Positions 5,653 through 62,183 of a stretch of DNA of 64,000 bases are shown here, piece by piece. The first letter of the stretch is position 1, and each line of letters begins with the position of its first letter. The notes beneath the pieces are model-generated. The model saw only the letters and a list, made by a program, of their open reading frames with translations, did no database searches and had not been told where the DNA came from. The stretch is taken from assembly GCA_964650645.1 (NCBI GenBank), contig CAZYUH010000001.1, positions 475,099 through 539,098 on the forward strand, written 5' to 3'. The DNA comes from an uncultured Candidatus Saccharibacteria bacterium (GTDB lineage Bacteria; Patescibacteriota; Minisyncoccia; Phycocordibacterales; SBAW01). The position numbers and the translations under genes are program-made.

Positions 5653-6231
5653 CTATTGTTCGGGGATGATTTCCTCTCCGTCGTATATGAGCACCGTGTA
5701 GCTTCCGCGCGGCGTGACGCACGTGATGATAGGGTCGGGCCCTATGGTCTTGATAGTAAACGAGCTGTCCGGAATGGCCGCGCGTATCCGCAGGAGCAGG
5801 TCGCGCGCGAAGTCCGGCACGCGGCGCTCTTCGCGCCTTTCGATGTACGTCCCGTCGCTCTCGAGCCGGTGCGTAGCCCATTCCGATGAGGGGCGGCACA
5901 GCGTGCGGCCCAGGAGCGTGAACGCGAGCGCCGGCATCGCTGCGGCGGACAGGATCGTGACGCATACGAGGGCCATGCTGTCCCCGTATCCTCCAAGAGC
6001 CGCTTCTCCCGCCGCAACGGTTAAGCAGAATACGGCGACCGATGCGAAGAAACGTATGGTGTCTGACCATGCATCGCCCATGCGCCGCGCGATGAGGCCC
6101 GGCGGGTGCTTGAGAAGCTCGGCGTCCATATAGCGCTGCACGTATCCGTCGTCGTATATGCATGCTCCGGCCGCCTCTAAGAGGGTTGCGTCGCTTGCAC
6201 GGTCTTCCTTGCGGTACCCGGGCTGGGTCAT
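5653..6231 (-). CDS. hypothetical membrane protein (2 TM)
   Basis: ATG 6231 preceded by AGGAGCGACTG; TM segments ASVAVFCLTVAAG and ALVCVTILSAAAMPALAFTLLG. Confidence 0.5.
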   Translation of the reverse strand: MTQPGYRKEDRASDATLLEAAGACIYDDGYVQRYMDAELLKHPPGLIARRMGDAWSDTIRFFASVAVFCLTVAAGEAALGGYGDSMALVCVTILSAAAMPALAFTLLGRTLCRPSSEWATHRLESDGTYIERREERRVPDFARDLLLRIRAAIPDSSFTIKTIGPDPIITCVTPRGSYTVLIYDGEEIIPEQ

Positions 6232-6411
6232 CAGTCGCTCCTATGTTTTGGGGTGTGTCCGGACCCACCATAGCACGGCGCGCTGCGCGCGCAATGCGCG
6301 GCGCCGCCACGGCCTATCCAAGCGCTTTTTATTTGACCATAAAAGCCTTATATAGCAAGGCTTTTTGCGCACCGCCGTCCGTGCAGAGGGGCTCGGAATT
6401 TGGTATACTAA

Positions 6412-8484
<2,073 letters not shown>

Positions 8485-20641: not shown

Positions 20642-21562
20642 ATGGCCAACAGGCACCTCTCACGCTCAGTCGTTCTCCAGACACTCTTCGAGTGGGACTT
20701 CCGACATCTCTCGGCGGACGACTGCCTCGAATCCCTCGAGCGCATCGCGGAGGAGTCCGTGCCGCAGGGCGGCGACGCGCCGTTCATGGAGGACCTCCTG
20801 AGGGGCGTGCTCAGCCGCGCCGCGGACCTCGACATGGTCATAGGCAAGGCCGCGCCCGAGTGGCCCATTGACCGCATCGCGCCAGTTGACCGCAACGTCC
20901 TGCGCCTCGGGCTCTACGAGCTCCTGTTCGCCGACCGCGAGAAGGTTCCCGCAAAGGTCGCCATCAACGAGGCGATAGAGCTCGCCAAGAGCTTCGGCGG
21001 CGAGCATTCGGGCCGCTTCGTCAACGGGGTGCTCGGCGCCGTCTACAAGGAATTGGGCGAGCCGGGCAAGGACGAGGTGTCCAAGAAGAAGAAGGAGGTT
21101 CCGTGGGAGGAGATGCCGCAGGAGCGCCTGGTGGGCGCGGTCGTCTACGCCCGCTCGGGCAACGAGCTGTACCTCGCGCTGGTGCACGACATCTTCGGCC
21201 ACTGGACCCTCTCCAAGGGCAAGCTCACTCCCGATGAGACGCCGGAGGCCGGCGTGGTGCGCAAGATAAAGGAGGAGATAGGCTTGAATATCGAGCCCGA
21301 GCTGAGGCTGGGCGAGAACGAGTACGTCGCTTCCGACCCTGCGGCCGGCAAGAAGCGCAAGCACGTCATCTACTTCCTCGCGAAGTCGCCGTTCGCCGAG
21401 GTGGAGCTCGCTAAGAAGGGCGGCTTGGACGACGCGCGCTGGTTCAAGCTCCAGGACGCGCTCGAATTGAATTTTTACGAGGACATGCTTCCCATCGTCA
21501 TGAAGGCTGTCGAGCACCTCGGCGCCGATGCGAAAGGTAGAGCGAAGCTGAACGCTAATTAG
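20642..21562 (+). CDS. nusB: transcription antitermination factor NusB fused to a C-terminal NUDIX hydrolase domain (306 aa)
   Basis: N-terminal about 150 aa contains KVAINEAIELAKSFGGEHSGRFVNGVLGAV (NusB signature); C-terminal part has a Nudix box KGKLTPDETPEAGVVRKIKEEIGLNI and Nudix fold. Confidence 0.85.
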   Translation: MANRHLSRSVVLQTLFEWDFRHLSADDCLESLERIAEESVPQGGDAPFMEDLLRGVLSRAADLDMVIGKAAPEWPIDRIAPVDRNVLRLGLYELLFADREKVPAKVAINEAIELAKSFGGEHSGRFVNGVLGAVYKELGEPGKDEVSKKKKEVPWEEMPQERLVGAVVYARSGNELYLALVHDIFGHWTLSKGKLTPDETPEAGVVRKIKEEIGLNIEPELRLGENEYVASDPAAGKKRKHVIYFLAKSPFAEVELAKKGGLDDARWFKLQDALELNFYEDMLPIVMKAVEHLGADAKGRAKLNAN

Positions 21563-29978: not shown

Positions 29979-30255
29979 GAATAGCGAAACCAACGGGCAG
30001 GCCGCGGGGGCCATGAGTGAGTATCGAGTGGGGGTTTCGATACAACTAAAGAGGTGTGGATACTTTCACCTAAAGCTTCATAAGGAAGCAGGGGAGCCCT
30101 TTGGGCGACCCGGATTTTTCGTGTTTTGGCTGTGTGCATAAGTCAGTTGACTCCTAAGCATTTGTGCGAATAGCCATTGCCAGGAAAGAGAGAGGTGGGT
30201 GCGTCGGGCGCAGGTGCGGGTCCCTTTATCAACGTCCCTTCATCTTACAATCATC

Positions 30256-37107
<6,852 letters not shown>

Positions 37108-49756: not shown

Positions 49757-52700
49757 TTACGCGCTGCAGGACTCGCAGGCCTCGCTCAATACTTCGAGCT
49801 TGGGGCGGTTCGTCACCGCGACCTTTCCGGCGCCGAACGAGGGGATGCCGGCCGAGCCGCCCAAGGGCGACGCGGCGGCCGCTTCGAACATCGAGCCCGG
49901 GGCGTACGGCGCCTGCTTTGCCTGCTCGATGAGCTCCAGCTGGCCCGCCGCGACCTGCTCGTTCTCCACCTCGGCGACCACCTGGCCGACGCTCATCATC
50001 GAGACGGCTTCCTGGGCGCTGTGCGCGTGCATGGCCTGCGCCATGAGGGTGTCCTGGCTTACCGCGGCCGCGGTTTCCTGCAGTGTCACCGGGCTTGGCA
50101 TGGGCGCCGGGGAGGGCGCTCCCGTGCCTGCGCCGGCGGCGTGCTTGGCGCTGTCTATAGTCGACTTCTCGACGCGCGACGCGCCGAGCGAGCGCAGGTA
50201 GTAGGTGGTCTTCAATCCCATGCTCCACGCGTACTGGTAGATTTCCGAGAGCACGCGGCCCGAGGTGCCGCCGTAGAATATGTTCAAGGACTGCGACTGG
50301 TCGATCCAGCGGCCGCGGTAGGCGGCGGCCTTGATGAGCCACTGCGGCTCCATCTCGAACACCTCCTTGTACTTCTCGCGCACCTGCGGCGGGATTTCCA
50401 GTATCGACTGCACGGAGCCGTCGTGGAACTTGATCTTCTCGAGCATGTCCTGGTTCCACAGCCCGAGCGCCTTGAGGTCGGCAACGAGGAACTCGTTGAC
50501 TATCATGAAGTCGCCGGCCATGTTGGACTTCACGTAGATGTTCTTGTAAATGGGCTCGACGGTGGGATAGCAGCCGGCGATGTTGGCCGTGGTGGCCGTG
50601 GGCGCGTGGGCCTGGGTGTTGGAGTTGCGCATGCCCCACTGGCGCACGGCCTCGCGCACCAGGCGCCAGTCGAGCGTCTCGTGGCGCGGCACGTCAATCT
50701 TCTGGCCGCGCTCCTGCTCCAAGAGGGCGAGCGTGTCCTGCGGGAGTATGCCGCGGTCCCACTTGGAGCCCTTGTAGGTCTCGTAGGTGCCGCGCTCCTT
50801 GGCGAGCAGGGCGGAGGAGAGCACCGCGTGGTAGGAGATGACCTCCTGGCTCTCGTCGCTGAACTTGACCGCCTGGTCGGTATCGAAGTTGATGCCCATC
50901 TTGTAGAGCGCGTCCATGAGCCCGCGAAGCCCTAAGCCCACGGGGCGGTGGCGCATGTTGGAGTTCTTCGTCTTTTCGGTCGGGTAGAAGTTGACGTCGA
51001 TGACGTTGTCGAGCATGCGCATGGCGACCGGCACCACGCGCGCCACCAGGTCGCGGTCGAACTTAGCGTCGGCAGTCACGAAGGCGCCGAGGTTGAGGCT
51101 CCCGAGGTTGCACACGGCGGTCTCGGTCTTGCTGGTGTTGAGCGTTATCTCGGTGCAGAGGTTGGAGGAGTGCACGACGCCCACGTGGTCCTGAGGCGAG
51201 CGCACGTTGGAGGGGTCCTTCCATGTTATCCACGGGTGGCCCGTCTCGAAGAGCATGGTGATGTGCTTGCGCCACAGCTCCTGCGCGCGGATGACCTTAT
51301 GGAGCTTTATCTTCCCCTCCTGGGCCATCTGCTCGTAGCGCTCGTACGCCTCGTCGAAGCGCTTGCCGTACAGGTCGTGGAGGTCGACGACGTCCGACGG
51401 GCTGAACAGCGTCCATGTGCCGTCCTCCTTCAGGCGCTTCATGAACAAATCCGGTATCCAGGTAGCGGTGTTGAGGTCGTGCGCGCGGCGGCGCTCGTCG
51501 CCGGTGTTCTTGCGCAGGTCGATGAAGTCCTCTATTTCAAGGTGCCAGTACTCGAGGTACACGGCCGTGGCGCCGCGGCGGCGCCCCGAGCGGTTGATGG
51601 AGATGGTGACGTCGTTCTGGATGCGCAGGAACGGCACCACGCCCTGGCTTTCCACGCCGGTCTTCGATACCAGCGAGCCCGCGGCGCGGATGTAGGACCA
51701 GTCGACGCCCAGGCCGCCCGCGTACTTCAAAAGCTGGGCGCCGTCCTTGTACTCGTCGAATATGGAATGGAGGTCGTCCGGCACGGTGGAAAGGAAGCAC
51801 GAGGAGAGCTGGGGCACGGTGGTGCCGGCATGGTAGAGCGTGGGGGAGGACGGCATGTAGTACATGGCCGACATTATCTCGTAGAACTCTATGGCCTGGG
51901 CCTCGCGCGCCTCGGGTGTCTTCTCGGCCAGGGCGCAGCCCATGGCGACGCGCATCCAGAACATCTGCGGGGTCTCGAGGAGCTTGCGGGTCTTCACTTC
52001 CTTTGAAAGGTAGTTGGAGTGCAGGGTCTGGAGGCCGAGGTACTTGAAGTCGTTGTCGCGCTCGATGACGAGGGCGTCGGCGAGCTTGGCCAAGTCGAAC
52101 GAAAGAAGCTCCTTGTCAAACCAGCCGGTCTCGACGCCGCGGGCAATATTGCGCGCGAAGGCCGCCTTGTGCTCGTCCTCGAGCTTTGAGTAGTCGGCTA
52201 TGTCGCCTATGGCCTCGCGGTACATGTGCTGCAAAAGGAGGCGCGCGGCGACGTAGGAGTAGGCCGGGTCGCGCTCGATGAGCGAGCGGGTCACCATGAT
52301 GAGCACGTCGTGGATGTCCTTGGTCTTGATGCCGTCGTACATTTCCTGGCGCACGCGCGATATGACGGTCGGCGCGTCGATGACGCTCTCGTAGCCCGCA
52401 GAGGCGAACGCGAGGGTGCGCGCGAGCTTCGCCTCGGAGAAGGGCTCGCGGGCGCCGCCGCGCTTCTCAATAAGAAGGGCGTTCTCCTCTATCTTCTCCG
52501 CGACCTCCTGCTTTGCCTCCTCGCGGGCCTTGGCGTGCTCGTAGCGGTAGATGATGTAGTCCTTGGCGACGCCGAAGTACCCGCGCTCCATGAGCGCGTT
52601 CTCAACGAGGTCCTGCACGTCCTCGACGGTGGGGATGAACGCCGTGTTGCCGTACTTTGCTTCCAGGGTATCGACGACCGCCTTGGTAATGGCGATGGCG

Positions 52701-52819
52701 TCGCGGTCGTGGCTGTCGCCCAGCACTGCGGCGAACGCCTTCTGCACCGCGACGGTTATCTTTGCGGGCTCGAAATCCGCTATGGACCCGTTGCGCTTCT
52801 TGACTTTAGGCGTTGCCAT
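49757..52819 (-). CDS. nrdA: ribonucleotide reductase class Ia alpha subunit (ATP-cone N-terminus, long low-complexity C-terminal tail ending CESCSA)
   Basis: ATP-cone VKKRNGSIADFEPAKI; active-site region NLCTEI...; C-terminal redox Cys pair. Confidence 0.95.
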   Translation of the reverse strand: MATPKVKKRNGSIADFEPAKITVAVQKAFAAVLGDSHDRDAIAITKAVVDTLEAKYGNTAFIPTVEDVQDLVENALMERGYFGVAKDYIIYRYEHAKAREEAKQEVAEKIEENALLIEKRGGAREPFSEAKLARTLAFASAGYESVIDAPTVISRVRQEMYDGIKTKDIHDVLIMVTRSLIERDPAYSYVAARLLLQHMYREAIGDIADYSKLEDEHKAAFARNIARGVETGWFDKELLSFDLAKLADALVIERDNDFKYLGLQTLHSNYLSKEVKTRKLLETPQMFWMRVAMGCALAEKTPEAREAQAIEFYEIMSAMYYMPSSPTLYHAGTTVPQLSSCFLSTVPDDLHSIFDEYKDGAQLLKYAGGLGVDWSYIRAAGSLVSKTGVESQGVVPFLRIQNDVTISINRSGRRRGATAVYLEYWHLEIEDFIDLRKNTGDERRRAHDLNTATWIPDLFMKRLKEDGTWTLFSPSDVVDLHDLYGKRFDEAYERYEQMAQEGKIKLHKVIRAQELWRKHITMLFETGHPWITWKDPSNVRSPQDHVGVVHSSNLCTEITLNTSKTETAVCNLGSLNLGAFVTADAKFDRDLVARVVPVAMRMLDNVIDVNFYPTEKTKNSNMRHRPVGLGLRGLMDALYKMGINFDTDQAVKFSDESQEVISYHAVLSSALLAKERGTYETYKGSKWDRGILPQDTLALLEQERGQKIDVPRHETLDWRLVREAVRQWGMRNSNTQAHAPTATTANIAGCYPTVEPIYKNIYVKSNMAGDFMIVNEFLVADLKALGLWNQDMLEKIKFHDGSVQSILEIPPQVREKYKEVFEMEPQWLIKAAAYRGRWIDQSQSLNIFYGGTSGRVLSEIYQYAWSMGLKTTYYLRSLGASRVEKSTIDSAKHAAGAGTGAPSPAPMPSPVTLQETAAAVSQDTLMAQAMHAHSAQEAVSMMSVGQVVAEVENEQVAAGQLELIEQAKQAPYAPGSMFEAAAASPLGGSAGIPSFGAGKVAVTNRPKLEVLSEACESCSA

Positions 52820-53069: not shown

Positions 53070-53098
53070 TTGACAAATAGTTTTATAGGGTGTATAAT
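53070..53098 (+). promoter_or_regulatory. consensus promoter TTGACA-17-TATAAT
   Basis: Drives the small membrane gene at 53153; lies in an AT-richer patch (52880-53140). Confidence 0.65.
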
Positions 53099-53152
53099 TA
53101 GTGTGAAGTGGGCAGATAGGCTGTTCACGTTTTTCCGATGGGGGTAATTAGA

Positions 53153-53383
53153 ATGTTCGTTTCATACTGCGCTTGCGTTCCAGTGCTTCTGTTCGCCGCG
53201 CTCAAGGCGTACTCCGTATTCCATTTCCATTTCGGCCTGAGCGTGCGGCAATCGCAGGCGATTGCGGTGCTGGCCTACCTGGCGGTCCTGTTCGCGGTAA
53301 ACGCGCTGGCGTGGTCGGTATACGGGAAGAAAGAAGCCGTGCCGAAGTATGAGCTCGTTAAGGATCTTCCTAAAAGTTCTTGA
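53153..53383 (+). CDS. small membrane protein (76 aa, 2 TM)
   Basis: ATG 53153; hydrophobic segments CACVPVLLFAALKAY and AIAVLAYLAVLFAVNALAW; double-hairpin terminator 53395-53445. Confidence 0.45.
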   Translation: MFVSYCACVPVLLFAALKAYSVFHFHFGLSVRQSQAIAVLAYLAVLFAVNALAWSVYGKKEAVPKYELVKDLPKSS

Positions 53384-53394
53384 ACAGGCGGCGC

Positions 53395-53445
53395 AAGCCG
53401 CCCTAAAGGCCCCGCACGTGCGGGGCCTTTTCTTTTCAAGCGGGA
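53395..53445 (+). terminator. double-hairpin terminator (GGCGGC-gcaa-GCCGCC; GGCCCCG-cacgtg-CGGGGCC + TTTTCTTTTC)
   Basis: Sequence-visible stems and T-tract. Confidence 0.7.
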
Positions 53446-54143: not shown

Positions 54144-54614
54144 TTAGAACCTGACCGGAATCTCGAGCGACTTGTCGTTCTCGGGGAGGCCGGAGGGGTT
54201 GTCGTTGCGCAGCACTACGGTGCCCACGGAGCCCGCGGGCTGGGCCGGGAAGGGGAGCGTTATCATGAACGGCACGTACTCCTCGGTCATCCAGTCGCCC
54301 TGCGCCTGCGCCGGGCCTTCGGCTATGACCGCGCCCGCCGCGTCCTTTATCTGGACGGGGAAGGAGGCCTCGAAGTACCAGGTGCCGCGCGCGCGGCCCC
54401 ACATGGTGAGCGGCGAGGAGATCGAGTCGTTGTCCTTGAGGGACTCGACGACCAGCAAGTCCTCGTAGGAGGGGTTCGGCGCCGGCGGCGTCGTGGCCGC
54501 CTGGCCGTCGCCCAGCGTCGGGGCCTTGGTGTTGCCCGGGAGCATGAAAAGGATAATGGCCGCGATAATGATAAGTATGCCCACTATGATGACCGCCCAT
54601 CCTGTCTTGTTCAT
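54144..54614 (-). CDS. membrane-anchored hypothetical protein (N-terminal TM, Pro/Thr linker, beta-rich domain)
   Basis: ATG 54614; TATACT -10 ends 6 nt upstream, so leaderless; last gene of the GH130 operon direction. Confidence 0.5.
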   Translation of the reverse strand: MNKTGWAVIIVGILIIIAAIILFMLPGNTKAPTLGDGQAATTPPAPNPSYEDLLVVESLKDNDSISSPLTMWGRARGTWYFEASFPVQIKDAAGAVIAEGPAQAQGDWMTEEYVPFMITLPFPAQPAGSVGTVVLRNDNPSGLPENDKSLEIPVRF

Positions 54615-54639
54615 ATGCAAAGTATACCCGCGGCGCGCC

Positions 54640-55395
54640 TTACCGCAATAGGAACTCTATGAGCGTGGCGGTCTCCTGCGGGCTGAAGACCGGGTGGGCG
54701 CGCACGCCGGTCTTTACCACCACCGCGTCATTGCCGCCCTCTTCCAGGGCGTCGCCCACGTAGAGCATGTCTTTTGCGGGAATGCCCGAAATCTCGCTGA
54801 GGCGCTTGATGCCGTATGCCTTGTCTATGCCCTTGCGGGTGATGTCGACCGACGTCGAGCCGCCCGTGGCCACCGAGAACTCGGGGAGGCGCTTTTCAAC
54901 GGCCTCGCGCAGGACGCGGCGCTTCTCGCCCGAGGGGTCCCATTTGAGCTTCTCGTCGAGCGGCGCCTCCTGCCCCAGTCCCGAGAACACTATTTCCGCG
55001 CCGCGGTCCTCGATGCGCTCGCCCCATACGCGCTCCGGCTCCTGCGCGAGGCCGGCGTCTCCAAGCGCCTCCTTGAGCCCCGCGAGGATGCGCCCGCGCT
55101 CTTCTTCCGTAAAGGCGTAGTCGTAGTGCGGGTGCCACGAGCCTGTCTTGTGAACGAAGCACTGCGCCGCGTTGTCGGGAAAGAGGTAGAGGTTGCGCAG
55201 GGGCGCATCGTCGGAGAGCGCCGAGAGGAACTGCTTCTCGAACTGCGGGAAGCCGGCGCCGGACATGACGGCCACCGGCATCCTCGAAAGGAGGCGCGAT
55301 ACGAGCGCGCCCATTTCGGGGCTCAGCGGCTGCTTTGACTCGGCGAGCGTGCCGTCGAGGTCGAAGGCGACGAGTTTCGGGAGCGGCGTGGTCAT
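54640..55395 (-). CDS. HAD-superfamily hydrolase (subfamily IIB, Cof/phosphomannomutase-like)
   Basis: Internal ATG 55395 (MTTPLPKLVAFDLDGTLAESKQPL: DxDGT motif I); ...SGAGFP..., C-terminal GDALEEGGNDAVV (motif IV). ATGA overlap with the upstream GH130 gene. Confidence 0.72.
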   Translation of the reverse strand: MTTPLPKLVAFDLDGTLAESKQPLSPEMGALVSRLLSRMPVAVMSGAGFPQFEKQFLSALSDDAPLRNLYLFPDNAAQCFVHKTGSWHPHYDYAFTEEERGRILAGLKEALGDAGLAQEPERVWGERIEDRGAEIVFSGLGQEAPLDEKLKWDPSGEKRRVLREAVEKRLPEFSVATGGSTSVDITRKGIDKAYGIKRLSEISGIPAKDMLYVGDALEEGGNDAVVVKTGVRAHPVFSPQETATLIEFLLR

Positions 55396-57317
55396 GACAG
55401 GGTATCGGGCAGGAGTATCTTCAGGAGCTTCTTGAGCGACATCTTCGCGACGCCGATCACGGTGTCGGCACCGCCGTAGTATACAAGAAGCGTGTCGCCG
55501 CGCAGCACCGCCCCGCAGGAGAACACGACGTTGCGTATCTGGCCCACGCGCTCGTACTCCTCTATGGGCTCGAATATCGTGTCGACGCTGCGCGAGAGCA
55601 CGATGGCGGGGTTCTTGAGGTCCAGAAGCACCGCGCCCAGCCGGTAGGTGCTCGTCTTTGATACGCCGTGGTAGATGAGCAGCCAGCCCTTGGGGGTCTT
55701 TATAGGCGGCCCGGCGATGCCGACCTTCTTGGAGTCCCACATGCCGGCGCGCGGGCCCATGAGCTCGATGCAGCGCGTGAGCCTGCTCTTCTTGAAATCG
55801 AGCGTGTCGAGGAAGTCCGCGCAGATCATGGGGTCGATGCGGTGCATGAGCATGTACTGGCCGCCGACCTTCTCTTCAAGGAGGCACGTGTCCTTGTCCT
55901 GCACGTTGTCGGGCGTGACGAGCTGGGGCGCGCTCCACTTGTCGAAGCGCTTCGCGACGAAATCCTTCACTGAAATGCTCGAGAGCGCGGCGCGCCACGG
56001 GTCGGCGCCGTTGTAGGCGGTATAGGCGAGGTAGATGGTGTTGCCGATGCGGGTGAGCCGCGGGTCCTCGCAGCCCGAGCCCGAGCCGGGCGGCCCCTTC
56101 TTCATCTCGAACTCCTCGCGCGGCAGGTAGGCGGGCGTCGCCATGCGCTCCAGTATCTTCGTGCCGTTCTTGGTAGAGGCGTACCCGAGTACGGACGTGT
56201 TGTCGTCGCCGAGCGCCCGGTACAAAAGGTGCACGGTGCCGTCGATGTCTATCGCGGCCGCGTTGAAGACCGCCCGGTTCTCCCACGTATGCTCCGGCAC
56301 GGGGGAAAGGAGGGGGTTCTCCTTGGCCCTCTTGGCAAGCTCGACGCGGCGCGCGGGGATTATGGCCGAGAGGAGGTCGGGGAGGTTCACCGACGCGCGG
56401 GCGCATACGGTGTCGGCGCCTCCGTAGTAGATGTCCACGCGCCCGTTCTTTTCAATGAGCGCGCCGGTGGGGAAGACGATGTTGGGCACGATGCCGTAGC
56501 GCTCGTAGATCTCCTCGGGCACCATGATGGGGCCGCGCGTGGCGCCCGCTATCCGGTAAGGGTCGTTCAGGTCAAGGAGGAGCGCCTCGATGCCGAAGAC
56601 CCGCTCGCCGCCGCCGAAGTAGTTCTGTATGTAGGAATAGAACATGAGCCAGCCGTCCTTGGTCTTTATTGGCGCGGAGCCCACCTCGACGTGGTCGTGC
56701 TCGAAGCGCAGGGGGTTGATGACATGGTCGTCGAGGTTCGCGTGCCACTTCTCCCAGAAGGAGAGGTCCCACAGCTCCTCCATTTCGTCGCACTGGGCTA
56801 TGGCTATCTTGGCCGGCGGCTCGTCGGTGTGCGCGGTGAGGATGACGGTTATCTTGCCGTTGATACGCTCCGGGAAGAGCGCCATCGCCTTGGCGTTGAA
56901 CGGCGTGATGAGGTGGCGCTCCTCTATGGTCTCGAGGTCCTTTGAGATAGCGCATGCGACCTTGATGTTGCCCGGGCCGAACGGCATGCCGCCGAGCGCC
57001 GTGTAGAAGATATAGTACTTGCCCTCGAAGAACGTCGCGCGCGGGTCCTCGCAGCCGTACTTCTCCCAGGGCTCTTCCGGCACGATGAACTGCCGGCGGT
57101 TCTGGAAGTGGCGGCCGTCGAGCGTGAGCGCCTTGCCGATAGTCGAGACGCCGTCGGGCGCCATGAGCGCGTCGGGGCGCCCGAGCGCGCGGTACAGGAC
57201 GTGCGTGATTGCGCCCTTTTTTACGGGCGAGGGGTTGAAGGTGCCGTGCGCCTCCCATGGCTTGTCGCCGATGGGGGAGATGAGGGGGTTGTGGCCGCTG
57301 CGCTTGATAACGTACAT
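55392..57317 (-). CDS. tandem double GH130-family (DUF377) glycoside phosphorylase/hydrolase (two complete 5-bladed-propeller units in one 641-aa polypeptide)
   Basis: Each half carries GCEDPR(A/L) and YYGGADT signatures (YGCEDPRATFFEGKYYIFYTALG / VDIYYGGADTV; GSGCEDPRLTRIG / LLVYYGGADTV). Start at internal ATG 57317; the upstream part of the ORF is Arg-rich junk. Confidence 0.78.
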   Translation of the reverse strand: MYVIKRSGHNPLISPIGDKPWEAHGTFNPSPVKKGAITHVLYRALGRPDALMAPDGVSTIGKALTLDGRHFQNRRQFIVPEEPWEKYGCEDPRATFFEGKYYIFYTALGGMPFGPGNIKVACAISKDLETIEERHLITPFNAKAMALFPERINGKITVILTAHTDEPPAKIAIAQCDEMEELWDLSFWEKWHANLDDHVINPLRFEHDHVEVGSAPIKTKDGWLMFYSYIQNYFGGGERVFGIEALLLDLNDPYRIAGATRGPIMVPEEIYERYGIVPNIVFPTGALIEKNGRVDIYYGGADTVCARASVNLPDLLSAIIPARRVELAKRAKENPLLSPVPEHTWENRAVFNAAAIDIDGTVHLLYRALGDDNTSVLGYASTKNGTKILERMATPAYLPREEFEMKKGPPGSGSGCEDPRLTRIGNTIYLAYTAYNGADPWRAALSSISVKDFVAKRFDKWSAPQLVTPDNVQDKDTCLLEEKVGGQYMLMHRIDPMICADFLDTLDFKKSRLTRCIELMGPRAGMWDSKKVGIAGPPIKTPKGWLLIYHGVSKTSTYRLGAVLLDLKNPAIVLSRSVDTIFEPIEEYERVGQIRNVVFSCGAVLRGDTLLVYYGGADTVIGVAKMSLKKLLKILLPDTLS

Positions 57318-57331
57318 GCTCGTATTATATG

Positions 57332-58465
57332 TCAGGCTTTTACGGGCACGAGGTCCGCGCGCTGGCCGTGGGCCAGTTTCAGCAGGAAGTCGTCGAGATT
57401 GGCGCGCGCGGCGGCCACGTACTTGTCGCCGCCGCCGTAGTACACCAAGAGGTCCTCGCCGACGATGACCGCGCCCGAGACGTACACGACGCCGGGCTTC
57501 CAGTCGTTCTCGTACCACTCATCGGGCTCCAGCACGGGCTCCTTCGAGCGGTGCAGGATTTTCTTGGGGTTCTTGAGGTCAAGGAGCATCGCGCCCACCT
57601 TGTACTTGTGCGGCTCGCGCTCGTCTATGGCGTGGTAGAACAGGAGCCACCCGTCCTTGGTGCGAAGCGGCGGCGCGCCCGCGCCGCGCAGGCGGCTGTC
57701 CCACGCCTTGGGGCGCTGGGCGCGCTCGAAGCGGCTGCGTATGTAGGCGGAGTCGTTCGCGTCGCCCGGCTGTATGTAGGCGATCTGTATCTCGGGCTCC
57801 AGGTTGTGCAAGATGCCGTAGCGCCCGCGTATCTTCTCGGGGAAGAGCACCCAGTTCTTCTGCACCTCGCCGGGCGGCGAGAGGTACACGCCGCGCTCCC
57901 AATTGAAAAATCCCTGCTCGAGCTCGGTGAGCGGCAGGAAGGAGAGCATCATGCGCACGTTGCTCCATCCCTCGAACGAAGTGAACGTCATGCAGACGTG
58001 CCCGTCGATGACGACGGCGCGCGGGTCTTCCGTGCCGCCCCAGCCGCCGCCCGAGCCGTGCGTCGTGGTGTCGTAGGAGAGCGGCGCGTACTTCCTCGCA
58101 CCGCGCCGCGCGCGCTCCAGGCTCGCGGGCGACGGGTCGTAGGCGGGGGAGCTTGAGCGCGTAAAATGCACGCCGTCGTCGCTGTGCGCGTAGCCGATGC
58201 GCGATACGCCGTCCTGCCCTATGGCGCGGTACAGGAGGTGCACCTTGCCGCCGTGCACGAACGCCGCCGGGTTGAACACCGCCTCGGACTCCCACCAGTT
58301 CGCGGGATCGGGCGAAAGAACGGGGTTGTTTTCCGCGCGCTCGAGCCTGAGGCTGGGCTTGTAGGCGGCGTAGAGCCTGCCTAGGATATAGAAAACGGCC
58401 AACAGGCACGCAAAAAGAAGGGCGACGACGAGGAATGGGAGATACCAGGCGCTAAGCGCGTCCAT
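57332..58465 (-). CDS. GH130-family (DUF377) glycoside phosphorylase/hydrolase with N-terminal membrane anchor
   Basis: TM LPFLVVALLFACLLAVFYILG; GGTEDPRAVVIDG and LLVYYGGGDKYV signatures. Confidence 0.78.
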   Translation of the reverse strand: MDALSAWYLPFLVVALLFACLLAVFYILGRLYAAYKPSLRLERAENNPVLSPDPANWWESEAVFNPAAFVHGGKVHLLYRAIGQDGVSRIGYAHSDDGVHFTRSSSPAYDPSPASLERARRGARKYAPLSYDTTTHGSGGGWGGTEDPRAVVIDGHVCMTFTSFEGWSNVRMMLSFLPLTELEQGFFNWERGVYLSPPGEVQKNWVLFPEKIRGRYGILHNLEPEIQIAYIQPGDANDSAYIRSRFERAQRPKAWDSRLRGAGAPPLRTKDGWLLFYHAIDEREPHKYKVGAMLLDLKNPKKILHRSKEPVLEPDEWYENDWKPGVVYVSGAVIVGEDLLVYYGGGDKYVAAARANLDDFLLKLAHGQRADLVPVKA

Positions 58466-58805
58466 ACCGGTCCTCTATCCTTGTAATGTCGCGCTCGTCG
58501 AAGTCGCCGAAGGCTATCTCGAGGAACTCAACGCCCTCGGGGCCGGCTTCCATGCGGTGCGCGCGCCCGGCAGGGCAGAAGAACTGCGCTCCCGGGGCGG
58601 CCTCGTGCGTCTCGCTGCCGAGCGTCACGCGCCCGGAGCCCGCGAGGATGCGCCAGAACTCGCCGCGGTGCTCGTGAGTCTGCAGGCTGAACGCCTCGCC
58701 GGGGCGCACGGCGATGATCTTGACGGTCGAGGGCTCGTTGAGGGTGAAGCGCTCATAGCCTCCCCACGGACGCGCGTCCTTCTCGTACCCTGAAAGGCCT
58801 TCCAT
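58452..58805 (-). CDS. cupin-domain protein (small mannose-6-phosphate isomerase-like cupin)
   Basis: Two-motif cupin (G(X)5HxH...E / P.G..H: SLQTHEHRGEFWRILAGSG...FCPAGRAHRMEAG); ATG 58805 with AAGGGG RBS; overlaps the GH130 start by 14 nt. Confidence 0.6.
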   Translation of the reverse strand: MEGLSGYEKDARPWGGYERFTLNEPSTVKIIAVRPGEAFSLQTHEHRGEFWRILAGSGRVTLGSETHEAAPGAQFFCPAGRAHRMEAGPEGVEFLEIAFGDFDERDITRIEDRYGRA

Positions 58806-59128
58806 GCCCCTTATTGTACGCCTCAAATCAAGCGGCTCATGGAAGGCCGAGTGGATAGCCGCTCGCGCCGGAGGGCCAGGACGCCTTTGGCGGCCCGGCC
58901 CTCCGGCTCAGGTGCTTAATTGTTCCATCTTGTTCTTTTCGACCGCGTTATGGCTTGTATGCCTGTTATAACCTCGCGCTGTCTTTCAAAGTGACGGCGG
59001 CCGCCATGCGGCTCATGTGCGCCGTCCTTCCAGTAGCGCGGCTTTTCCCGCCTGCGCTACATCGCACATGCTAGCAAGGCGCGATAAAGCCAGGATGAAT
59101 ATCCGCATGAAGGAATCGCATTAAGCGC

Positions 59129-60166
59129 TCATGCCTTCCTGTCCGAGAAGTCGAGCGTCGTCTTGCTCGACTCCTGCGCATGGCGCGCCGCGGCGCCGCC
59201 CAGCGGCAGCATGACGGATACCGTCGTGCCGCCCCGGCGCTTCTGGCTCTTGCGGCGGCTCTCGACGAGTATCTTGCCGCGGTGCGCGCGCACCATCTCG
59301 TTGACGATGGTAAGCCCCAGTCCCGAGCCCTCTTCCTGGCCGCGGCGGTTGCGCGACCCGTCCGCGCGGTAGAACGGCTCGAATACGTGCAGCAATTCCT
59401 CGTGCGTCATCCCCACGCCCGTATCCGCGACCTCGAAGAGCACCATGCCTTCCTGCGGCCTGAGGGTCACGGTGACGCTCCCGCCGTCCTTTTGGGGAGT
59501 GTAGGAGAGCGCGTTCTTCACGATATTGCTTATGACCTGCTCGAGCGCTACGGCATTGCCCCAGACTATCGAGCCGCGCTCGCAGCGCGCAGAGAGCTTG
59601 ATGCCGCGCTCGCGCGCAAGGGCCTGGTGGCGCGCGACGACCGCTTCGGTGAGCGGGATGAGGTCGAGGTTCTTGAATTGCATGCGCTCGGGGCGGGCGA
59701 GCGCGTTTAGGGAGAGCAGGTTGTTAATGATGTCGGAGATGCGGTTGAGCTCCCCGATTATCTCCTTGAACGTGGCGCCGAGCTCCTCCCTGAGCGCGGG
59801 GTCCATGAGCGCCACCTCGCTGTTGGTCTTTATTATGGAAAGCGGCGTGCGCAATTCGTGGGCGATGTTGGAGATGAAGAGCTTCTGGTGGCGCAGGTTG
59901 TCGCGCGCGGGCTTCAGGCTCAGCCGTATCAGCATGCCCGAGGCGGCGATGGAGAGCGCCAAGAGGACCGTGAGCATGACAAGGCTCTGGCCGGCGCTTG
60001 CCGCCACGAATAAGAGCGCGCCTATGCACAGGAGGGTGAAGCCGAGCTGGAGAGCGACGATATGGACGGCGGTGCGGAAGAAGATGTCGCTCTGGTAGCT
60101 ATGCGCGTACCTCCCCCATAAGGCGGTAGCCCACGCCGCGAACTGTCTCAAATAGTTGTTCACCAT
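59129..60166 (-). CDS. sensor histidine kinase (2 TM, HisKA + HATPase_c)
   Basis: H-box NIAHELRTPL; N, G1, G2 boxes (VISNIVKNALSY, DTGVGM, GSGLGLTIV). Annotated start overlaps the regulator gene by 68 nt. Confidence 0.8.
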   Translation of the reverse strand: MVNNYLRQFAAWATALWGRYAHSYQSDIFFRTAVHIVALQLGFTLLCIGALLFVAASAGQSLVMLTVLLALSIAASGMLIRLSLKPARDNLRHQKLFISNIAHELRTPLSIIKTNSEVALMDPALREELGATFKEIIGELNRISDIINNLLSLNALARPERMQFKNLDLIPLTEAVVARHQALARERGIKLSARCERGSIVWGNAVALEQVISNIVKNALSYTPQKDGGSVTVTLRPQEGMVLFEVADTGVGMTHEELLHVFEPFYRADGSRNRRGQEEGSGLGLTIVNEMVRAHRGKILVESRRKSQKRRGGTTVSVMLPLGGAAARHAQESSKTTLDFSDRKA

Positions 60167-60788
60167 CGTCGTTTTGGCCGAGCTTCTTGCGCAGGTTCTT
60201 CATGTGCACGTCGAGCACGTTGCTCCAGGAGAGGGAATTGAAGTCCCACACGTGGTCGAACAGCTTCTCGCGCGAAAGGACCTCGTTGGGCTGGCGCATG
60301 AAGCACTCCAGCAGCGAGAACTCCTTGAGCGTGAGCGATATCTCCTCGCCGTCGCGCTTGACCGTGCGCGTGGCCATGTCCATCTCCAAGGGGCCGACCT
60401 TGAGCGTGACGGGCTTCTGCTGCGCGGGGCGGCGCAGGACGGCGTTGATGCGCGAGAGCAGCTCCTCGAAGGAGAACGGCTTGACGATGTAGTCGTCGGC
60501 GCCCTTGTTGAGCAGGTCCACCTTGTGCTCTGTCTCGTTGCGCGCGGTGAGTATGACAATGGGCGTCACGACGCCCTCGCGGCGCACGGACTCGGTGATG
60601 GTCGCGCCGTCGAGCCCCGGGAGCATGAGGTCGAGTATGATGAGGTCGTACTCGTTGCGGTAGAGGAGTATGCGGCTGCGGGCCTTCTCGGGGTCGGGAA
60701 GCCAGTCGACCGCGAACCCCTTGAGTTCCAGCCCCTTCTTAAGGGCTTTCGCCAAGCGCTCCTCGTCTTCGACGATAAGTAAGTGCAT
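60099..60788 (-). CDS. OmpR-family response regulator
   Basis: Receiver DLIILDLMLPGLDG, winged-helix C-terminus (...VRGVGYRL); TACACT -10 immediately upstream of the ATG suggests a leaderless mRNA. Confidence 0.85.
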   Translation of the reverse strand: MHLLIVEDEERLAKALKKGLELKGFAVDWLPDPEKARSRILLYRNEYDLIILDLMLPGLDGATITESVRREGVVTPIVILTARNETEHKVDLLNKGADDYIVKPFSFEELLSRINAVLRRPAQQKPVTLKVGPLEMDMATRTVKRDGEEISLTLKEFSLLECFMRQPNEVLSREKLFDHVWDFNSLSWSNVLDVHMKNLRKKLGQNDDGEQLFETVRGVGYRLMGEVRA

Positions 60789-60900: not shown

Positions 60901-61566
60901 TTATGCTGACTTGAAGAGCGCCCAGTCGCGGGGCATGAGCCATTGCGCGATGTGCAGTATGCCGTAGGTGATGAAGAACGCCGAGGCTACGTCGATGGTG
61001 TAGTGGATGTGCGCCAGAAGGACGACCGCGGCGAAGAAGAGGGAGGCGGCGAGGAAGAACGCGGCCTCGCGCTTCTGTATGCGCCACAGGGCGAGCGCGC
61101 CCAGGAACGGCATGCCGGTGTGCGCCGAGAAGAACTGGTCCGCGCCGAAGAAGGAGCGCACGATGGTGTCGCCGAAGTCGGTCACGTACTGCGCCTCCGG
61201 CGGGCCCAGGTGCGTCATGAGCGTGAAGAGCGAGCGGATGACGATGAACAGCGCTACCGCCTTGAGCGCGAAGGGAATCCGCTTGGGGCGGCTGAATATT
61301 ATCGAGGCGCTCACCGCGGCGACGACGAAAGTGCCGTACACGAACACGCCGTCAAGATCGAAGACGGGGATATTGGAGAGGATGATGTCCTGGACGCCGG
61401 CGCCGGCGCGGGCCGTCGCCTGCGCTATCGCCCAGAAATTCACGCAGAGCGCGGCGCCAAGCGCCGCGCTCCCGGCCGCCGCGGAAGCGATGAAGCCGGG
61501 CTCTCGGAAGGCGTCCCGGTACCGTCTGGCCACTATTGAAACCACCCTCCAATGATACAATGCCAC
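60901..61566 (-). CDS. PAP2-like integral membrane protein with sphingomyelin-synthase/AUR1-type motifs (GADQFFSAHTG, HYTIDV)
   Basis: 6 predicted TM segments; conserved SGHT- and HYTxDV-like motifs; GTG start overlapping the divergent DedA start. Confidence 0.5.
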   Translation of the reverse strand: MALYHWRVVSIVARRYRDAFREPGFIASAAAGSAALGAALCVNFWAIAQATARAGAGVQDIILSNIPVFDLDGVFVYGTFVVAAVSASIIFSRPKRIPFALKAVALFIVIRSLFTLMTHLGPPEAQYVTDFGDTIVRSFFGADQFFSAHTGMPFLGALALWRIQKREAAFFLAASLFFAAVVLLAHIHYTIDVASAFFITYGILHIAQWLMPRDWALFKSA

Positions 61567-62183
61567 TGCAGATACCCGCCATGTCCCCCTTTACGCTCGA
61601 AGGCTCCATAGCGCTCCTCTCGGCCTGGGGCTACGCCGTCCTGCTTCCCTTGTCGATAATCGAGGGCCCCATCGTGGGCATCTTCGCGGGCTTCCTGGTG
61701 TCATTGGGGCAGATGAACTGGGCCATCGCGTTCGCGGTGCTGTTCGCGGGGGACATGATAGGCGACGTCATCTACTACTATGTCGGCCGGTGGGGCCACG
61801 GGCCGTGGGCGCACCGCCTGGCGGCGCGCTTCGGGGTGACGCAGGAGCGCCTGGAAAAATTCGACGCGGCGTTCCATAAGCACGCGGTCAAGATACTCCT
61901 CATAAACAAGACGCAGGCGCTCGGCTCGCTCACGCTGTACTACGCGGGCGCGGTGCGCATGCCGATGTTCACGTTCCTGTGGGTCAACACGGTAGGCACC
62001 ATACCAAAAAACGCGCTGTTCCTGGCCGCCGGCTACTATTTCGGGGAGAGCTACCGGAGCATCGACAGGTACCTGGGCTACGCGGGCTGGGCGACGCTCG
62101 CGATACCCGTCCTTCTCATCGCGGGCTACTGGCTCTTCAAACTCTACTACAAGGGCCGCAACGAGGTCGAGGAGATCGTATGA
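61560..62183 (+). CDS. DedA/VTT-domain membrane protein
   Basis: Characteristic hydrophobic profile and G(Y/F)xxGxxxP-like segment (LLPLSIIEGPIVGIFAGF); stop overlaps the GT4 start (ATGA). Confidence 0.72.
   Translation: MPLQIPAMSPFTLEGSIALLSAWGYAVLLPLSIIEGPIVGIFAGFLVSLGQMNWAIAFAVLFAGDMIGDVIYYYVGRWGHGPWAHRLAARFGVTQERLEKFDAAFHKHAVKILLINKTQALGSLTLYYAGAVRMPMFTFLWVNTVGTIPKNALFLAAGYYFGESYRSIDRYLGYAGWATLAIPVLLIAGYWLFKLYYKGRNEVEEIV

Follow-up and report, generated by a model that had tools for sequence, protein, structure and literature searches.

A conserved GH130 gene cluster of Paceibacterota as a candidate cytoplasmic module linking beta-1,2-mannosides with fructose 6-phosphate

Bacteria of the candidate phyla radiation (CPR) have very few metabolic genes, and their storage and acquisition of carbon are poorly known. 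What is the role, then, of three carbohydrate-active units of family GH130 that stand side by side in such a genome? The units are located in a 64-kb stretch of DNA (64,000 nucleotides of contig CAZYUH010000001.1, assembly GCA_964650645.1, from an uncultured Candidatus Saccharibacteria bacterium), which was analysed as a whole and is called the window below. They are clustered with a cupin gene and a gene of the haloacid dehalogenase-like (HAD) superfamily, and the original prediction for this cluster was the salvage of host or environmental mannans by phosphorolysis. Our analysis points to a somewhat different role. On balance it is probable that the cluster is a conserved Paceibacterota (CPR) operon for a cytoplasmic beta-1,2-mannoside module, which would be linked to fructose 6-phosphate (Fru-6-P) through a triad of GH130 units.

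Four close-packed genes on the minus strand span positions 58805 to 54640, according to a six-frame list of open reading frames (ORFs) and a check of the start codons, and the limits given before agree exactly with the first start and the last stop. The first gene encodes a stand-alone cupin similar to type II phosphomannose isomerase (PMI) (58452..58805, 117 aa, ATG at 58805, PF01050). It is followed by the genes for a membrane-tethered GH130 unit, here named GH130a (57332..58465, 377 aa, PF04041), for a GH130-GH130 fusion, here named the tandem protein (55392..57317, 641 aa, two copies of PF04041), and for a HAD-IIB mutase of the clade of eukaryotic phosphomannomutase (PMM) and PgmH (54640..55395, 251 aa). 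The fusion consists of an N-terminal, hydrolase-like unit (N-unit, 56343..57317, aa 1-325) and a C-terminal unit of phosphorylase type (C-unit, 55392..56342, aa 326-641 plus stop). The 3' end of the cupin gene overlaps the start of GH130a by 14 nt, and the stop of the tandem gene overlaps the start of the HAD gene by 4 nt (ATGA), but between GH130a and the tandem gene there is a spacer of 14 nt. The overlapping start and stop codons that had been claimed for the cluster are thus present at two of its three junctions. Pfam and NCBIfam matches together with the ORF list confirmed that the GH130 units, the PMI-type cupin and the PMM-family HAD protein are real and co-linear, and PF04041 and hydropathy bore out that there are three GH130 units, two of them fused and one with an N-terminal hydrophobic helix.

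Is this arrangement found in other genomes? One genome per GTDB species was scanned, which gave 298 stretches encoding relatives, and the best 80 of them, with full-length matches at 54-81% identity, were used for the synteny counts. Nearly all of these 80 loci belong to metagenome-assembled genomes of CPR/Patescibacteria (Paceibacterota, Adlerbacteria, Kaiserbacteria, Nomurabacteria and Taylorbacteria), and some carry generic or other labels. The identical 641-aa protein is also encoded on Logan metagenome contigs, with the same neighbours. In the 80 species-level relatives the tblastn matches of the partner genes are on the same strand as the tandem gene. Counted by the best ORF, GH130a is linked to the tandem gene in 77/80 loci, the cupin in 68/80 and the PgmH-type HAD in 51/80, and all four genes are together in 48/80. 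There are two gene orders, cupin-GH130a-tandem-HAD as in the window and HAD-cupin-GH130a-tandem in Nomurabacteria-type genomes. The linkage persists despite this rearrangement, which argues for a functional unit.

Fusions between the units were also found beyond these loci. A HMMER search with the N-unit against 1.84 billion representative proteins gave 1118 proteins at E <= 1e-10, and the domain architectures of the best 150 of them were classified by the same alignment columns that were used for the units of the window. Among these 150 there were 10 fusions of an N-like with a phosphorylase-type unit, 17 stand-alone N-like proteins, three double N-like proteins and one protein with the reverse order (phosphorylase-type, then N-like). 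One protein (P0121, 8001..10916 of its contig L083) is a triple fusion of 971 aa in the order A-like, N-like and phosphorylase-type. Considering this triple fusion and the co-occurrence in 77/80 loci, the three GH130 types probably form one linked functional unit. No Pfam match was obtained for the N-terminal extensions (about 280 aa) that A-like relatives carry.

On which substrate would the three units act? PF04041 was matched by GH130a at 3.8e-35 and by the tandem protein, with its two copies, at 2e-89 (gathering score 26). Among solved structures, all three units are most similar to two Thermoanaerobacter enzymes, the 1,2-beta-oligomannan phosphorylase Teth514_1788 (9FJ8) and Teth514_1789 (7FIP), a phosphorylase of beta-1,2-mannobiose, with E values from 1e-36 to 7e-59. 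With the model for beta-1,2-mannobiose phosphorylase (NF052550), the tandem protein scored 418.6 bits with its two copies summed and GH130a scored 213.8 bits, both below the cut-off of 450. Residue criteria for GH130 were taken from PMC7660257, PMC12814180 and PMC4599007, and include the proton-donor Asp, the residue pair of the +1 subsite, and the phosphate-binding Arg, second basic residue and His. A Glu/Lys pair in the +1 subsite (E136/K184 of Uhgb_MS) indicates beta-1,2 and a Tyr/Arg pair beta-1,4 specificity (PMC12814180, PMC7660257). The phosphate site is made of an Arg (R168 of Uhgb_MP, R202 of Uhgb_MS), the second basic residue R242 and a His (H231 of Uhgb_MP). The Arg/His pair is the criterion for phosphorylases (PMC7660257), and GH130 hydrolases are without it and have Glu227 and Glu268 instead (PMC4599007). 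The three units from the window and the related loci were aligned with reference sequences by MAFFT, and pairwise HMMER alignments agreed on the missing phosphate ligands; the reference sequences had been copied from tool-made alignments, with only partial ones for Uhgb_MS and Uhgb_MP.

The Glu/Lys pair was present in 80/80 C-units, 80/80 N-units and 77/77 GH130a proteins. The catalytic Asp (D104 of Uhgb_MP, D142 of BT3780) is D147 in GH130a, D91 in the N-unit and D418 in the C-unit, and is invariant in 77-80 homologues of each. The Asn of the -1 subsite (FNP) is invariant in all units, and so is the Asp of the GGAD motif except in one GH130a homologue (76/77). All three units have short L2 loops. 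Specificity for beta-1,4-mannan was rejected, as the pair is Glu/Lys and not Tyr/Arg and the beta-1,4 enzymes were much weaker matches. A generic or beta-1,4 mannan substrate of the cluster is therefore not supported, given the invariance of the E136/K184 pair and the top matches to Teth514_1788/1789. The predicted substrate class of all three units is beta-1,2-mannoside.

The units differ from each other in the phosphate site. At the position of R202, Arg is found in 80/80 C-units (R493) and Thr, Ser or Ala in 80/80 N-units (T164), and in GH130a the residue is Ser, Asn or Ala in 69/77 and Arg in only 3/77 (N221 in the window). The second basic position (R242) is Lys or Arg in 80/80 C-units (K531), a hydrophobic residue in GH130a (L259) and His in 77/80 N-units (H209). 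Just before G244 there is Val or Ile in the C-unit, Arg in 75/77 GH130a proteins (R260) and a variable residue in the N-unit, and the position of G244 itself is Gly in 80/80 C-units (G533), Gly or Ser in GH130a and Glu in 80/80 N-units (E211). Finally, the His of the YHG motif is kept in 80/80 C-units (H550) and 73/77 GH130a proteins (H278) and is replaced by Ser in 80/80 N-units (S228). Side by side, the units make up a natural series of three states of the GH130 phosphate site: full, Arg-less and carboxylate-replaced. The median identity of the homologues to the window is 59% for the N-unit, 55% for the C-unit and 47% for GH130a. Phosphorolysis, which had been expected of all GH130 units, is thus indicated for the C-unit, which keeps the Arg/His pair, but not for the N-unit and GH130a, which are without it. 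The check on phosphate-binding residues and on the class of the HAD protein, on which the original prediction was to be judged, had a mixed result: one unit keeps the pair, two do not, and the HAD protein is not a generic phosphatase.

The C-unit is the simplest case. Its best solved relatives are 7FIP (Teth514_1789, 6.6e-59) and 9FJ8 (3.6e-55), and its identity is 44% to Teth514_1789 and 42-44% across Teth514_1788/1789. With the key residues D418, E417, K475, R493, K531 and H550 it looks like a canonical beta-1,2-mannoside phosphorylase, the enzyme type of GH130_4/_6 (EC 2.4.1.339/340). A prediction of chain length from the Trp120 loop of Teth514_1789 was dropped, because the Trp was present in only 11/80 C-units.

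The N-unit matched 9FJ8 best among the solved structures (1e-38, full length). It keeps D91, E90 and K143 but the phosphate ligands are replaced (T164, H209, S228), and E211 and D165 are invariant. For comparison with the hydrolases, the sequences of BT3780 and BACOVA_03624 were rebuilt from PDB alignments through a bridging relative, and the numbering was checked on N74, R89, E141 and D142. The column of E211 corresponds to Glu268 of BT3780, with Glu in 80/80 N-units and Gly in all C-units and reference phosphorylases. Mutation of Glu268 in BT3780 caused a 200-fold loss of activity, and this residue is a candidate for the catalytic base (PMC4599007). Because the phosphate site is lost and an invariant Glu stands at the position of Glu268, the N-unit is most likely a beta-1,2-mannoside enzyme of hydrolase type, or at least one that does not use phosphorolysis. 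It does not appear to be a member of GH130_3, the sole subfamily with characterised hydrolases: its score with the GH130_3 model NF058598 was 157.6 against a cut-off of 550, and its match to 5A7V (BT3780; 3.9e-10) covered only aa 20-107. The hydrolase-type site would then have arisen in a GH130_6-like lineage, outside GH130_3. We also considered the N-unit as a decaying pseudo-domain and rejected it, for its conservation is the highest among the three units and all its sugar-binding residues are kept.

GH130a has 9FJ8 (Teth514_1788) as its best solved relative, at 8e-51. The subsites are of beta-1,2 type (E146, D147, K203), N221 replaces the phosphate Arg, H278 is kept and R260 is invariant apart from two homologues (Arg at position 243 in 75/77). 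The position equivalent to R202 holds Ser in 39 of the 77 homologues, Asn in 18, Ala in 12, Gly in 3, Arg in 3 and Thr in 1. With such a pattern GH130a may have kept a weakened phosphorylase activity, or it may act as a transferase. The N-terminal transmembrane anchor (58379..58435, minus strand, aa 11-29, FLVVALLFACLLAVFYILG) has a mean Kyte-Doolittle hydropathy of 2.87, with no Lys or Arg before it and four after it, and is predicted as N-out/C-in. Such a helix is present in 31/76 GH130a homologues, and 27 of those 31 have more Lys and Arg on the C-terminal side. By the positive-inside rule, this distribution of charge predicts a cytoplasmic catalytic domain. In the Nomurabacteria-type loci (L031-L080), GH130a has in place of the helix a tail of 30-70 aa that is rich in Lys, e.g. 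MAALKKKKKILKKKVAVKKK..., which could be another way to the same place or serve a different partner. A poly-Lys tail cannot be a secretion signal, so together with the topology of the helix it indicates the inner face of the membrane as the predicted site of the catalytic domain.

Two further proteins would connect the GH130 units with glycolysis. The HAD protein matched 4BND, the alpha-phosphoglucomutase (APGM) of Lactococcus lactis, over its full length (5.3e-41, 33% identity), and after it only eukaryotic-type PMMs, at 1e-13 to 5e-5 (PMM1/PMM2 at 1e-13 to 1e-11); all of the 16 best matches to solved structures were either 4BND (two chains) or eukaryotic-type PMMs. It scored 32.6 bits with PF03332 (cut-off 22.4; 8.9e-8) and 57.6 with TIGR01484 (cut-off 41.8; 1.8e-15), and only 38.6 with the Cof model TIGR00099 (cut-off 137), where the match was limited to aa 168-217. 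The model comparison that had been suggested, PF03332 against Cof, is thereby decided in favour of the first, and a generic Cof phosphatase was rejected, with the Cof score far below the cut-off and all structure matches being mutases. The DxDGT nucleophile motif (D12, with D14) and motif IV (GDALEEGGND, with D215 and D223) are present, the conserved motifs having been computed over 52 sequences. Membership of the PMM/PgmH mutase clade is well supported. The more exact assignment as a phosphomannomutase, with specificity for mannose phosphates, is suggested by the gene context only. A Cof-type HAD-IIB protein (253 aa, PF08282 at 1.3e-18) was observed in L071 (about 5667..6460) and seven other loci, between a nucleotidyltransferase gene and the cupin gene, in the slot of the PgmH-type HAD.

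The cupin matched PF01050 at 4.1e-20 (72.6 bits, cut-off 23.6) over model positions 11-116 of 116, and with its PMI motifs kept, the earlier description as PMI-like is confirmed. It corresponds only to the C-terminal PMI domain of the bifunctional guanylyltransferase/isomerase GMP/PMI (positions 359-467 of TIGR01479), and it scored 68 against the equivalog cut-off of 373 because it stands alone, without a guanylyltransferase domain. Across 69 sequences, conservation of the motifs RPWG, SLQxH..RxEFW and HR is 90% or more; the Arg of RPWG is R12, and the putative metal ligands are Q42, H44, E49 and H83. No close solved relative was found, the best PDB matches being oxalate decarboxylase cupins at 1e-7, and no characterised stand-alone type II PMI cupin was found in the literature. 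We infer PMI activity from the domain and its motifs.

The following route can be proposed, in which each activity is deduced from family and residues. The C-unit would catalyze beta-1,2-Man(n) + inorganic phosphate <-> alpha-mannose 1-phosphate (Man-1-P) + Man(n-1). The N-unit, with its phosphate site exchanged for carboxylates, would bind the same sugar and hydrolyse (or transglycosylate) beta-1,2-mannosidic bonds beyond the reach of the phosphorylase. GH130a, at the inner membrane face, would work on or prime a membrane-proximal acceptor. The PgmH/PMM-type HAD would interconvert Man-1-P and mannose 6-phosphate (Man-6-P), and the stand-alone type II PMI cupin Man-6-P and Fru-6-P. The part from phosphorolysis through PMM and PMI to Fru-6-P, as in the original prediction, is an established catabolic scheme for GH130 (PMC4264767). 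No ATP or GTP is used and the known enzymes of these classes are reversible, so the route can run either way, and its direction is not deducible from sequence. If the activities are as predicted, the cluster can move hexose between beta-1,2-mannoside and Fru-6-P without ATP, which makes it a candidate carbon buffer or envelope-glycan pathway of CPR bacteria.

Several points weigh against this proposal. The synteny counts are not independent events, because the genomes that carry the 80 loci are related. In 29/80 loci there is no PgmH-type HAD, and some of these have a Cof-type HAD instead. The closest solved relative of the HAD is an alpha-phosphoglucomutase, and its cap motif (GQ.A....K..WDP...KR) is that of APGM and not that of PMM. 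For the L. lactis enzyme, Neves (2006) and Nogly (2013) are said to have reported strict specificity for glucose 1-phosphate or glucose phosphates. Nor is a protein with a type II PMI domain necessarily active as PMI, as the C-terminal domain of E. coli ManC was reported inactive. In the N-unit, the invariant Thr-Asp (T164-D165) lies in the loop of BT3780 Glu227, but MAFFT and HMMER place that loop differently. There is no ManC or other obvious priming transferase beside the operon in the window, and in the literature searched we found no report of beta-1,2-mannan in CPR bacteria.

Some of these points suggest a looser linkage, in which the HAD serves the cell as its general alpha-phosphoglucomutase, the cupin does something else or has no PMI activity, both are mere neighbours, and Man-1-P goes elsewhere, e.g. 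to nucleotide-sugar synthesis as was proposed for Thermoanaerobacter. The cap motif common to the HAD and its closest solved relative, the loci without the PgmH-type HAD, and the Thermoanaerobacter GH130 pair, which is linked to ManC and not to PMM and PMI, are all consistent with it. The linkage of cupin and HAD despite rearranged gene order, the overlapping start and stop codons in the window and the specific match of the cupin to the PMI domain with its motifs kept all speak for a closer connection, and we regard mere neighbourhood as very unlikely.

Where would the mannoside come from? The salvage originally predicted would be purely catabolic: imported host or environmental mannosides would be phosphorolysed by all GH130 units, and Man-1-P would pass through PMM and PMI into glycolysis without ATP. 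The route from a GH130 phosphorylase to Fru-6-P is established elsewhere (PMC4264767), the C-unit is a canonical phosphorylase by its residues, the mutase and isomerase genes are linked, and a hydrolase-like N-unit would also fit breakdown. However, neither the vicinity of the operon in the window nor the recurrent neighbours in the 80 loci, from clustering of all ORFs, included a transporter, a solute-binding protein or a secreted glycanase such as a mannanase. The phosphate Arg is missing in two of three units, the signature is that of the rare beta-1,2 linkage and not of beta-1,4 plant mannan, GH130a is predicted to be tethered at the cytoplasmic face of the membrane, and an identity of 54-81% across many free-water and soil CPR lineages would be odd for a niche substrate. 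In several relatives, moreover, the GH130 sets adjoin genes for sugar-1-phosphate nucleotidyltransferases or glycosyltransferases. The import of host or environmental mannan is thus not favoured by these data, and purely catabolic salvage seems unlikely.

We consider it somewhat more likely that the substrate is an endogenous beta-1,2-oligomannoside or mannan, as a reserve or envelope precursor. This is favoured because no uptake genes or secreted enzymes are linked, beta-1,2-mannosides are rare, the cluster is widely conserved in CPR and one unit has a membrane tether, and also because relatives are linked to ManC with GT2, to an RfaE-II-like nucleotidyltransferase or to GT2/GT4. The tandem protein, the HAD and the cupin had no N-terminal hydrophobic (signal-like) segment on reading of the sequences, for which no signal-peptide predictor was used. 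For this organism, the gene content considered here (ManC, kinases, importers) is that of the 64-kb window.

The genes around the related clusters have to be considered for a biosynthetic role. GT2 and GT4 genes adjoin the GH130 sets in several relatives. The gene of the triple fusion P0121 stands directly after a ManC-type nucleotidyltransferase gene, in an operon that also encodes an epimerase, a UDP-glucose dehydrogenase and a 652-aa GT2 synthase. It further neighbours IspA and genes for a PBP1C-like protein and an alpha-2-macroglobulin, which are common in Proteobacteria, and therefore this contig may not be from a CPR organism. An RfaE-domain-II-like nucleotidyltransferase heads the operon in 31/80 loci. 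The operon-head gene of L032-L080 (Nomurabacteria-type), e.g. L070 5169..5681, encodes a cytidylyltransferase-like protein of about 170 aa whose best match, at 2.9e-19 and below the cut-off, is RfaE domain II (D-glycero-beta-D-manno-heptose-1-phosphate adenylyltransferase). This protein could make a nucleotide-mannose. In the 64-kb window neither ManC nor an RfaE-II-like nucleotidyltransferase was found among the Pfam-scanned ORFs, and the RfaE-II-like gene gave no tblastn match.

Upstream of the cluster in the window are the genes for a membrane protein similar to PAP2 (60901..61566, minus strand), for a VTT/DedA protein (61536..62183, plus strand) and then for a GT4 glycosyltransferase, ending at 63214 (plus strand). 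BacA/UppP is present in 11 related loci and also adjoins a GH130 tandem in L084 (1009..1782). These recurring genes just upstream (PAP2, VTT/DedA, GT4, BacA/UppP) are tied to lipid-carrier or envelope chemistry.

With such neighbours a mainly anabolic role may be asked for, where the cupin and HAD make Man-1-P from Fru-6-P, the Arg-less GH130 units are mannosyltransferases using Man-1-P or nucleotide-mannose for a beta-1,2-mannosylated envelope glycan or glycolipid, and the phosphorylase edits or recycles the product. The triple fusion after ManC, the RfaE-II-like gene at the operon head and the recurring GT4, PAP2, DedA and BacA genes agree with it. All tested beta-1,2-specific GH130 phosphorylases showed glycosyltransferase activity with GDP-mannose, and a transferase function was predicted for enzymes that make fewer contacts with phosphate and whose L2 loop is short (PMC12814180), as it is in all three units here. 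The authors of that work doubted the physiological relevance of the transferase activity, however, and the R202A mutation of Uhgb_MS abolishes it rather than favouring it. The carboxylates in the phosphate site of the N-unit should repel the diphosphate of a nucleotide sugar, and the window has no nucleotidyltransferase among its Pfam-scanned ORFs. A mainly anabolic operon is, in our judgement, quite improbable.

Between breakdown and synthesis, the reversible beta-1,2-mannoside module leaves room for a more far-reaching idea. Paceibacterota might synthesise and degrade a beta-1,2-mannan of their own in the cytoplasm, associated with the membrane, as a bacterial counterpart of mannogen, the reserve polymer of Leishmania, with GH130a as tethered primer or extender, the C-unit as phosphorylase and the N-unit as hydrolase, and with an ATP-free, reversible link to glycolysis. 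We offer this tentatively, as a possibility well short of even likelihood. If it is true, hydrolysis would have arisen in GH130 a second time and independently with the site of the N-unit, outside GH130_3.

The intergenic region 5' of the cupin gene (58806..59128, minus strand, 323 bp) is the presumed promoter region of the operon from its position only. It had no match to Rfam and no riboswitch or known RNA, and no consensus sigma-70 promoter or terminator stood out there, the counts being equal to those of shuffled sequence. A GC-rich inverted repeat or hairpin lies at about 58868-58905 (minus strand), between the histidine kinase and cupin genes (CCGGAGGGCC...GGCCCTCCGG), and no T-run follows it. 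Upstream and co-directional are a histidine kinase (59129..60166, minus strand, Pfam HisKA/HATPase_c) and an OmpR-type response regulator (60099..60788, minus strand, Pfam Response_reg/Trans_reg_C). This two-component system is a possible regulator of the operon; it is adjacent in 8-11/80 related loci, and it reached no NCBIfam equivalog cut-off, so no specific identity such as PhoBR can be given. Downstream and co-directional, a protein with a Gmad2 Ig-like domain and an N-terminal anchor (54144..54620, minus strand, PF10648 at 5.5e-12) starts 19 nt past the HAD stop. It is possibly co-transcribed with the HAD gene, but with adjacency in only 7/80 related loci it is outside the conserved module.

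Some other features of the window are worth recording. A 2302-aa ORF (30199..37107, plus strand) has Rpb2 domains at aa 38-1066 and then Rpb1 at aa 1085-2187, and is a fused rpoB-rpoC. In a 306-aa protein (20642..21562, plus strand), a NusB domain (aa 7-136) is joined to a NUDIX hydrolase domain (aa 164-285), and we know of no earlier example of a NusB-NUDIX fusion. A perfect sigma-70 consensus (TTGACA, 17 nt, TATAAT; 53070..53098, plus strand) precedes an 81-aa membrane ORF (53138..53383), which is followed by an 11-bp GC-rich hairpin with a T-rich tail (53405..53430, plus strand); together they form a very clean small transcription unit beside a DUF1360 gene. The ribonucleotide reductase large subunit (49757..52819, minus strand; ATP-cone and class I domains) has a C-terminal extension of about 170 aa that is rich in Ala, Ser, Gly and Pro and ends in CESCSA.

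How much of this is already known from other systems? [quoted passage not shown] In public databases these CPR proteins are annotated as 'glycosidase-related' or 'beta-1,2-mannobiose phosphorylase'; giving the latter name to all units over-calls two of three. What we did not find described in the literature is the triad in three states, a site of hydrolase type beyond GH130_3, the tethering by a membrane helix or a poly-Lys tail, the association with a PgmH-type mutase and a stand-alone PMI cupin, and the wide conservation in Paceibacterota. In the literature searched, no paper linking GH130 with Parcubacteria or Paceibacteria was found, and one mentions two GH130 genes in a Microgenomates genome.

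The closest relatives by sequence are Teth514_1788/1789 of Thermoanaerobacter sp., where GH130 paralogues are also side by side with the same Glu/Lys pair and short L2 loop, and with the same phosphate site of Arg, Lys/Arg and His as in the C-unit. In the present cluster, in contrast, the phosphate site survives in a single paralogue out of three, a fusion unites two of them and the third has a membrane tether, and the partners are a PMI cupin and a PgmH-type mutase, whereas those in Thermoanaerobacter are an ABC transporter, GH5, ManC and GT4. For these two partners the known counterparts are the C-terminal domain of GMP/PMI and L. lactis PgmH/APGM. The former shares the motifs RPWG, SLQxHxxRxExW and HR with the cupin, which lacks the guanylyltransferase domain. 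The latter (4BND) shares DxDGT, GDxxxxGGND and the cap motif with the HAD in a full-length match, but the gene context of the HAD argues for mannose phosphates, unlike the glucose specificity reported for APGM.

The ATP-free logic from Man-1-P through PMM and PMI to Fru-6-P is the same as in the beta-1,4 pathways of GH130, e.g. that with the 1,4-beta-mannosyl-N-acetylglucosamine phosphorylase of Bacteroides thetaiotaomicron. The beta-1,4 enzymes have the Tyr/Arg pair and a long, inward-folded L2 loop, in contrast to Glu/Lys and the short L2 here. Their loci carry glycoside hydrolases, and their PMM and PMI belong to the usual alpha-D-phosphohexomutase and type I PMI families, not to a HAD mutase and a 117-aa cupin.

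The GH130_3 mannosidases BT3780 and BACOVA_03624 (5A7V, 3QC2) are likewise without the Arg/His pair and share with the N-unit the Glu at the position of Glu268, the catalytic Asp and the beta-1,2 Lys. The N-unit may also resemble BT3780 in having an acidic residue in the region of the Glu227 loop, where the alignment is ambiguous. By overall sequence, however, GH130_6 phosphorylases are far nearer to the N-unit (1e-38) than BT3780 is (4e-10, partial), and the N-unit is predicted to be cytoplasmic and is fused to a phosphorylase-type unit.

A last comparison is with the mannogen cycle of Leishmania (GT108, MTP1-7). Membership of the units in GT108 was rejected, as sequence searches of the PDB with limits of E <= 1e-3 (N-unit) or <= 1e-5 gave no MTP chain; this negative relies on the MTP structures (e.g. 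6Q4Y, 6Q50), which we take to be present in the PDB copy searched. The switch residue of GT108 is His or Arg, while here it is Asn, Ser or Ala (GH130a) or Thr, Ser or Ala (N-unit). In addition, the hydrolase-like unit has no counterpart in the GT108 literature found, and the CPR polymer is a proposal only. Nevertheless, in the Leishmania cycle too, paralogous five-bladed propellers act on beta-1,2-mannan with a phosphate site that varies, from strict transferases to phosphorylases, and the cycle is reversible, cytosolic and passes through Man-1-P, with paralogues dividing synthesis and phosphorolysis between them. It is the nearest functional analogue, and the operon described here may work alike, with a GH130 series that bears on the interconversion of phosphorylase, hydrolase and transferase activities in one fold.

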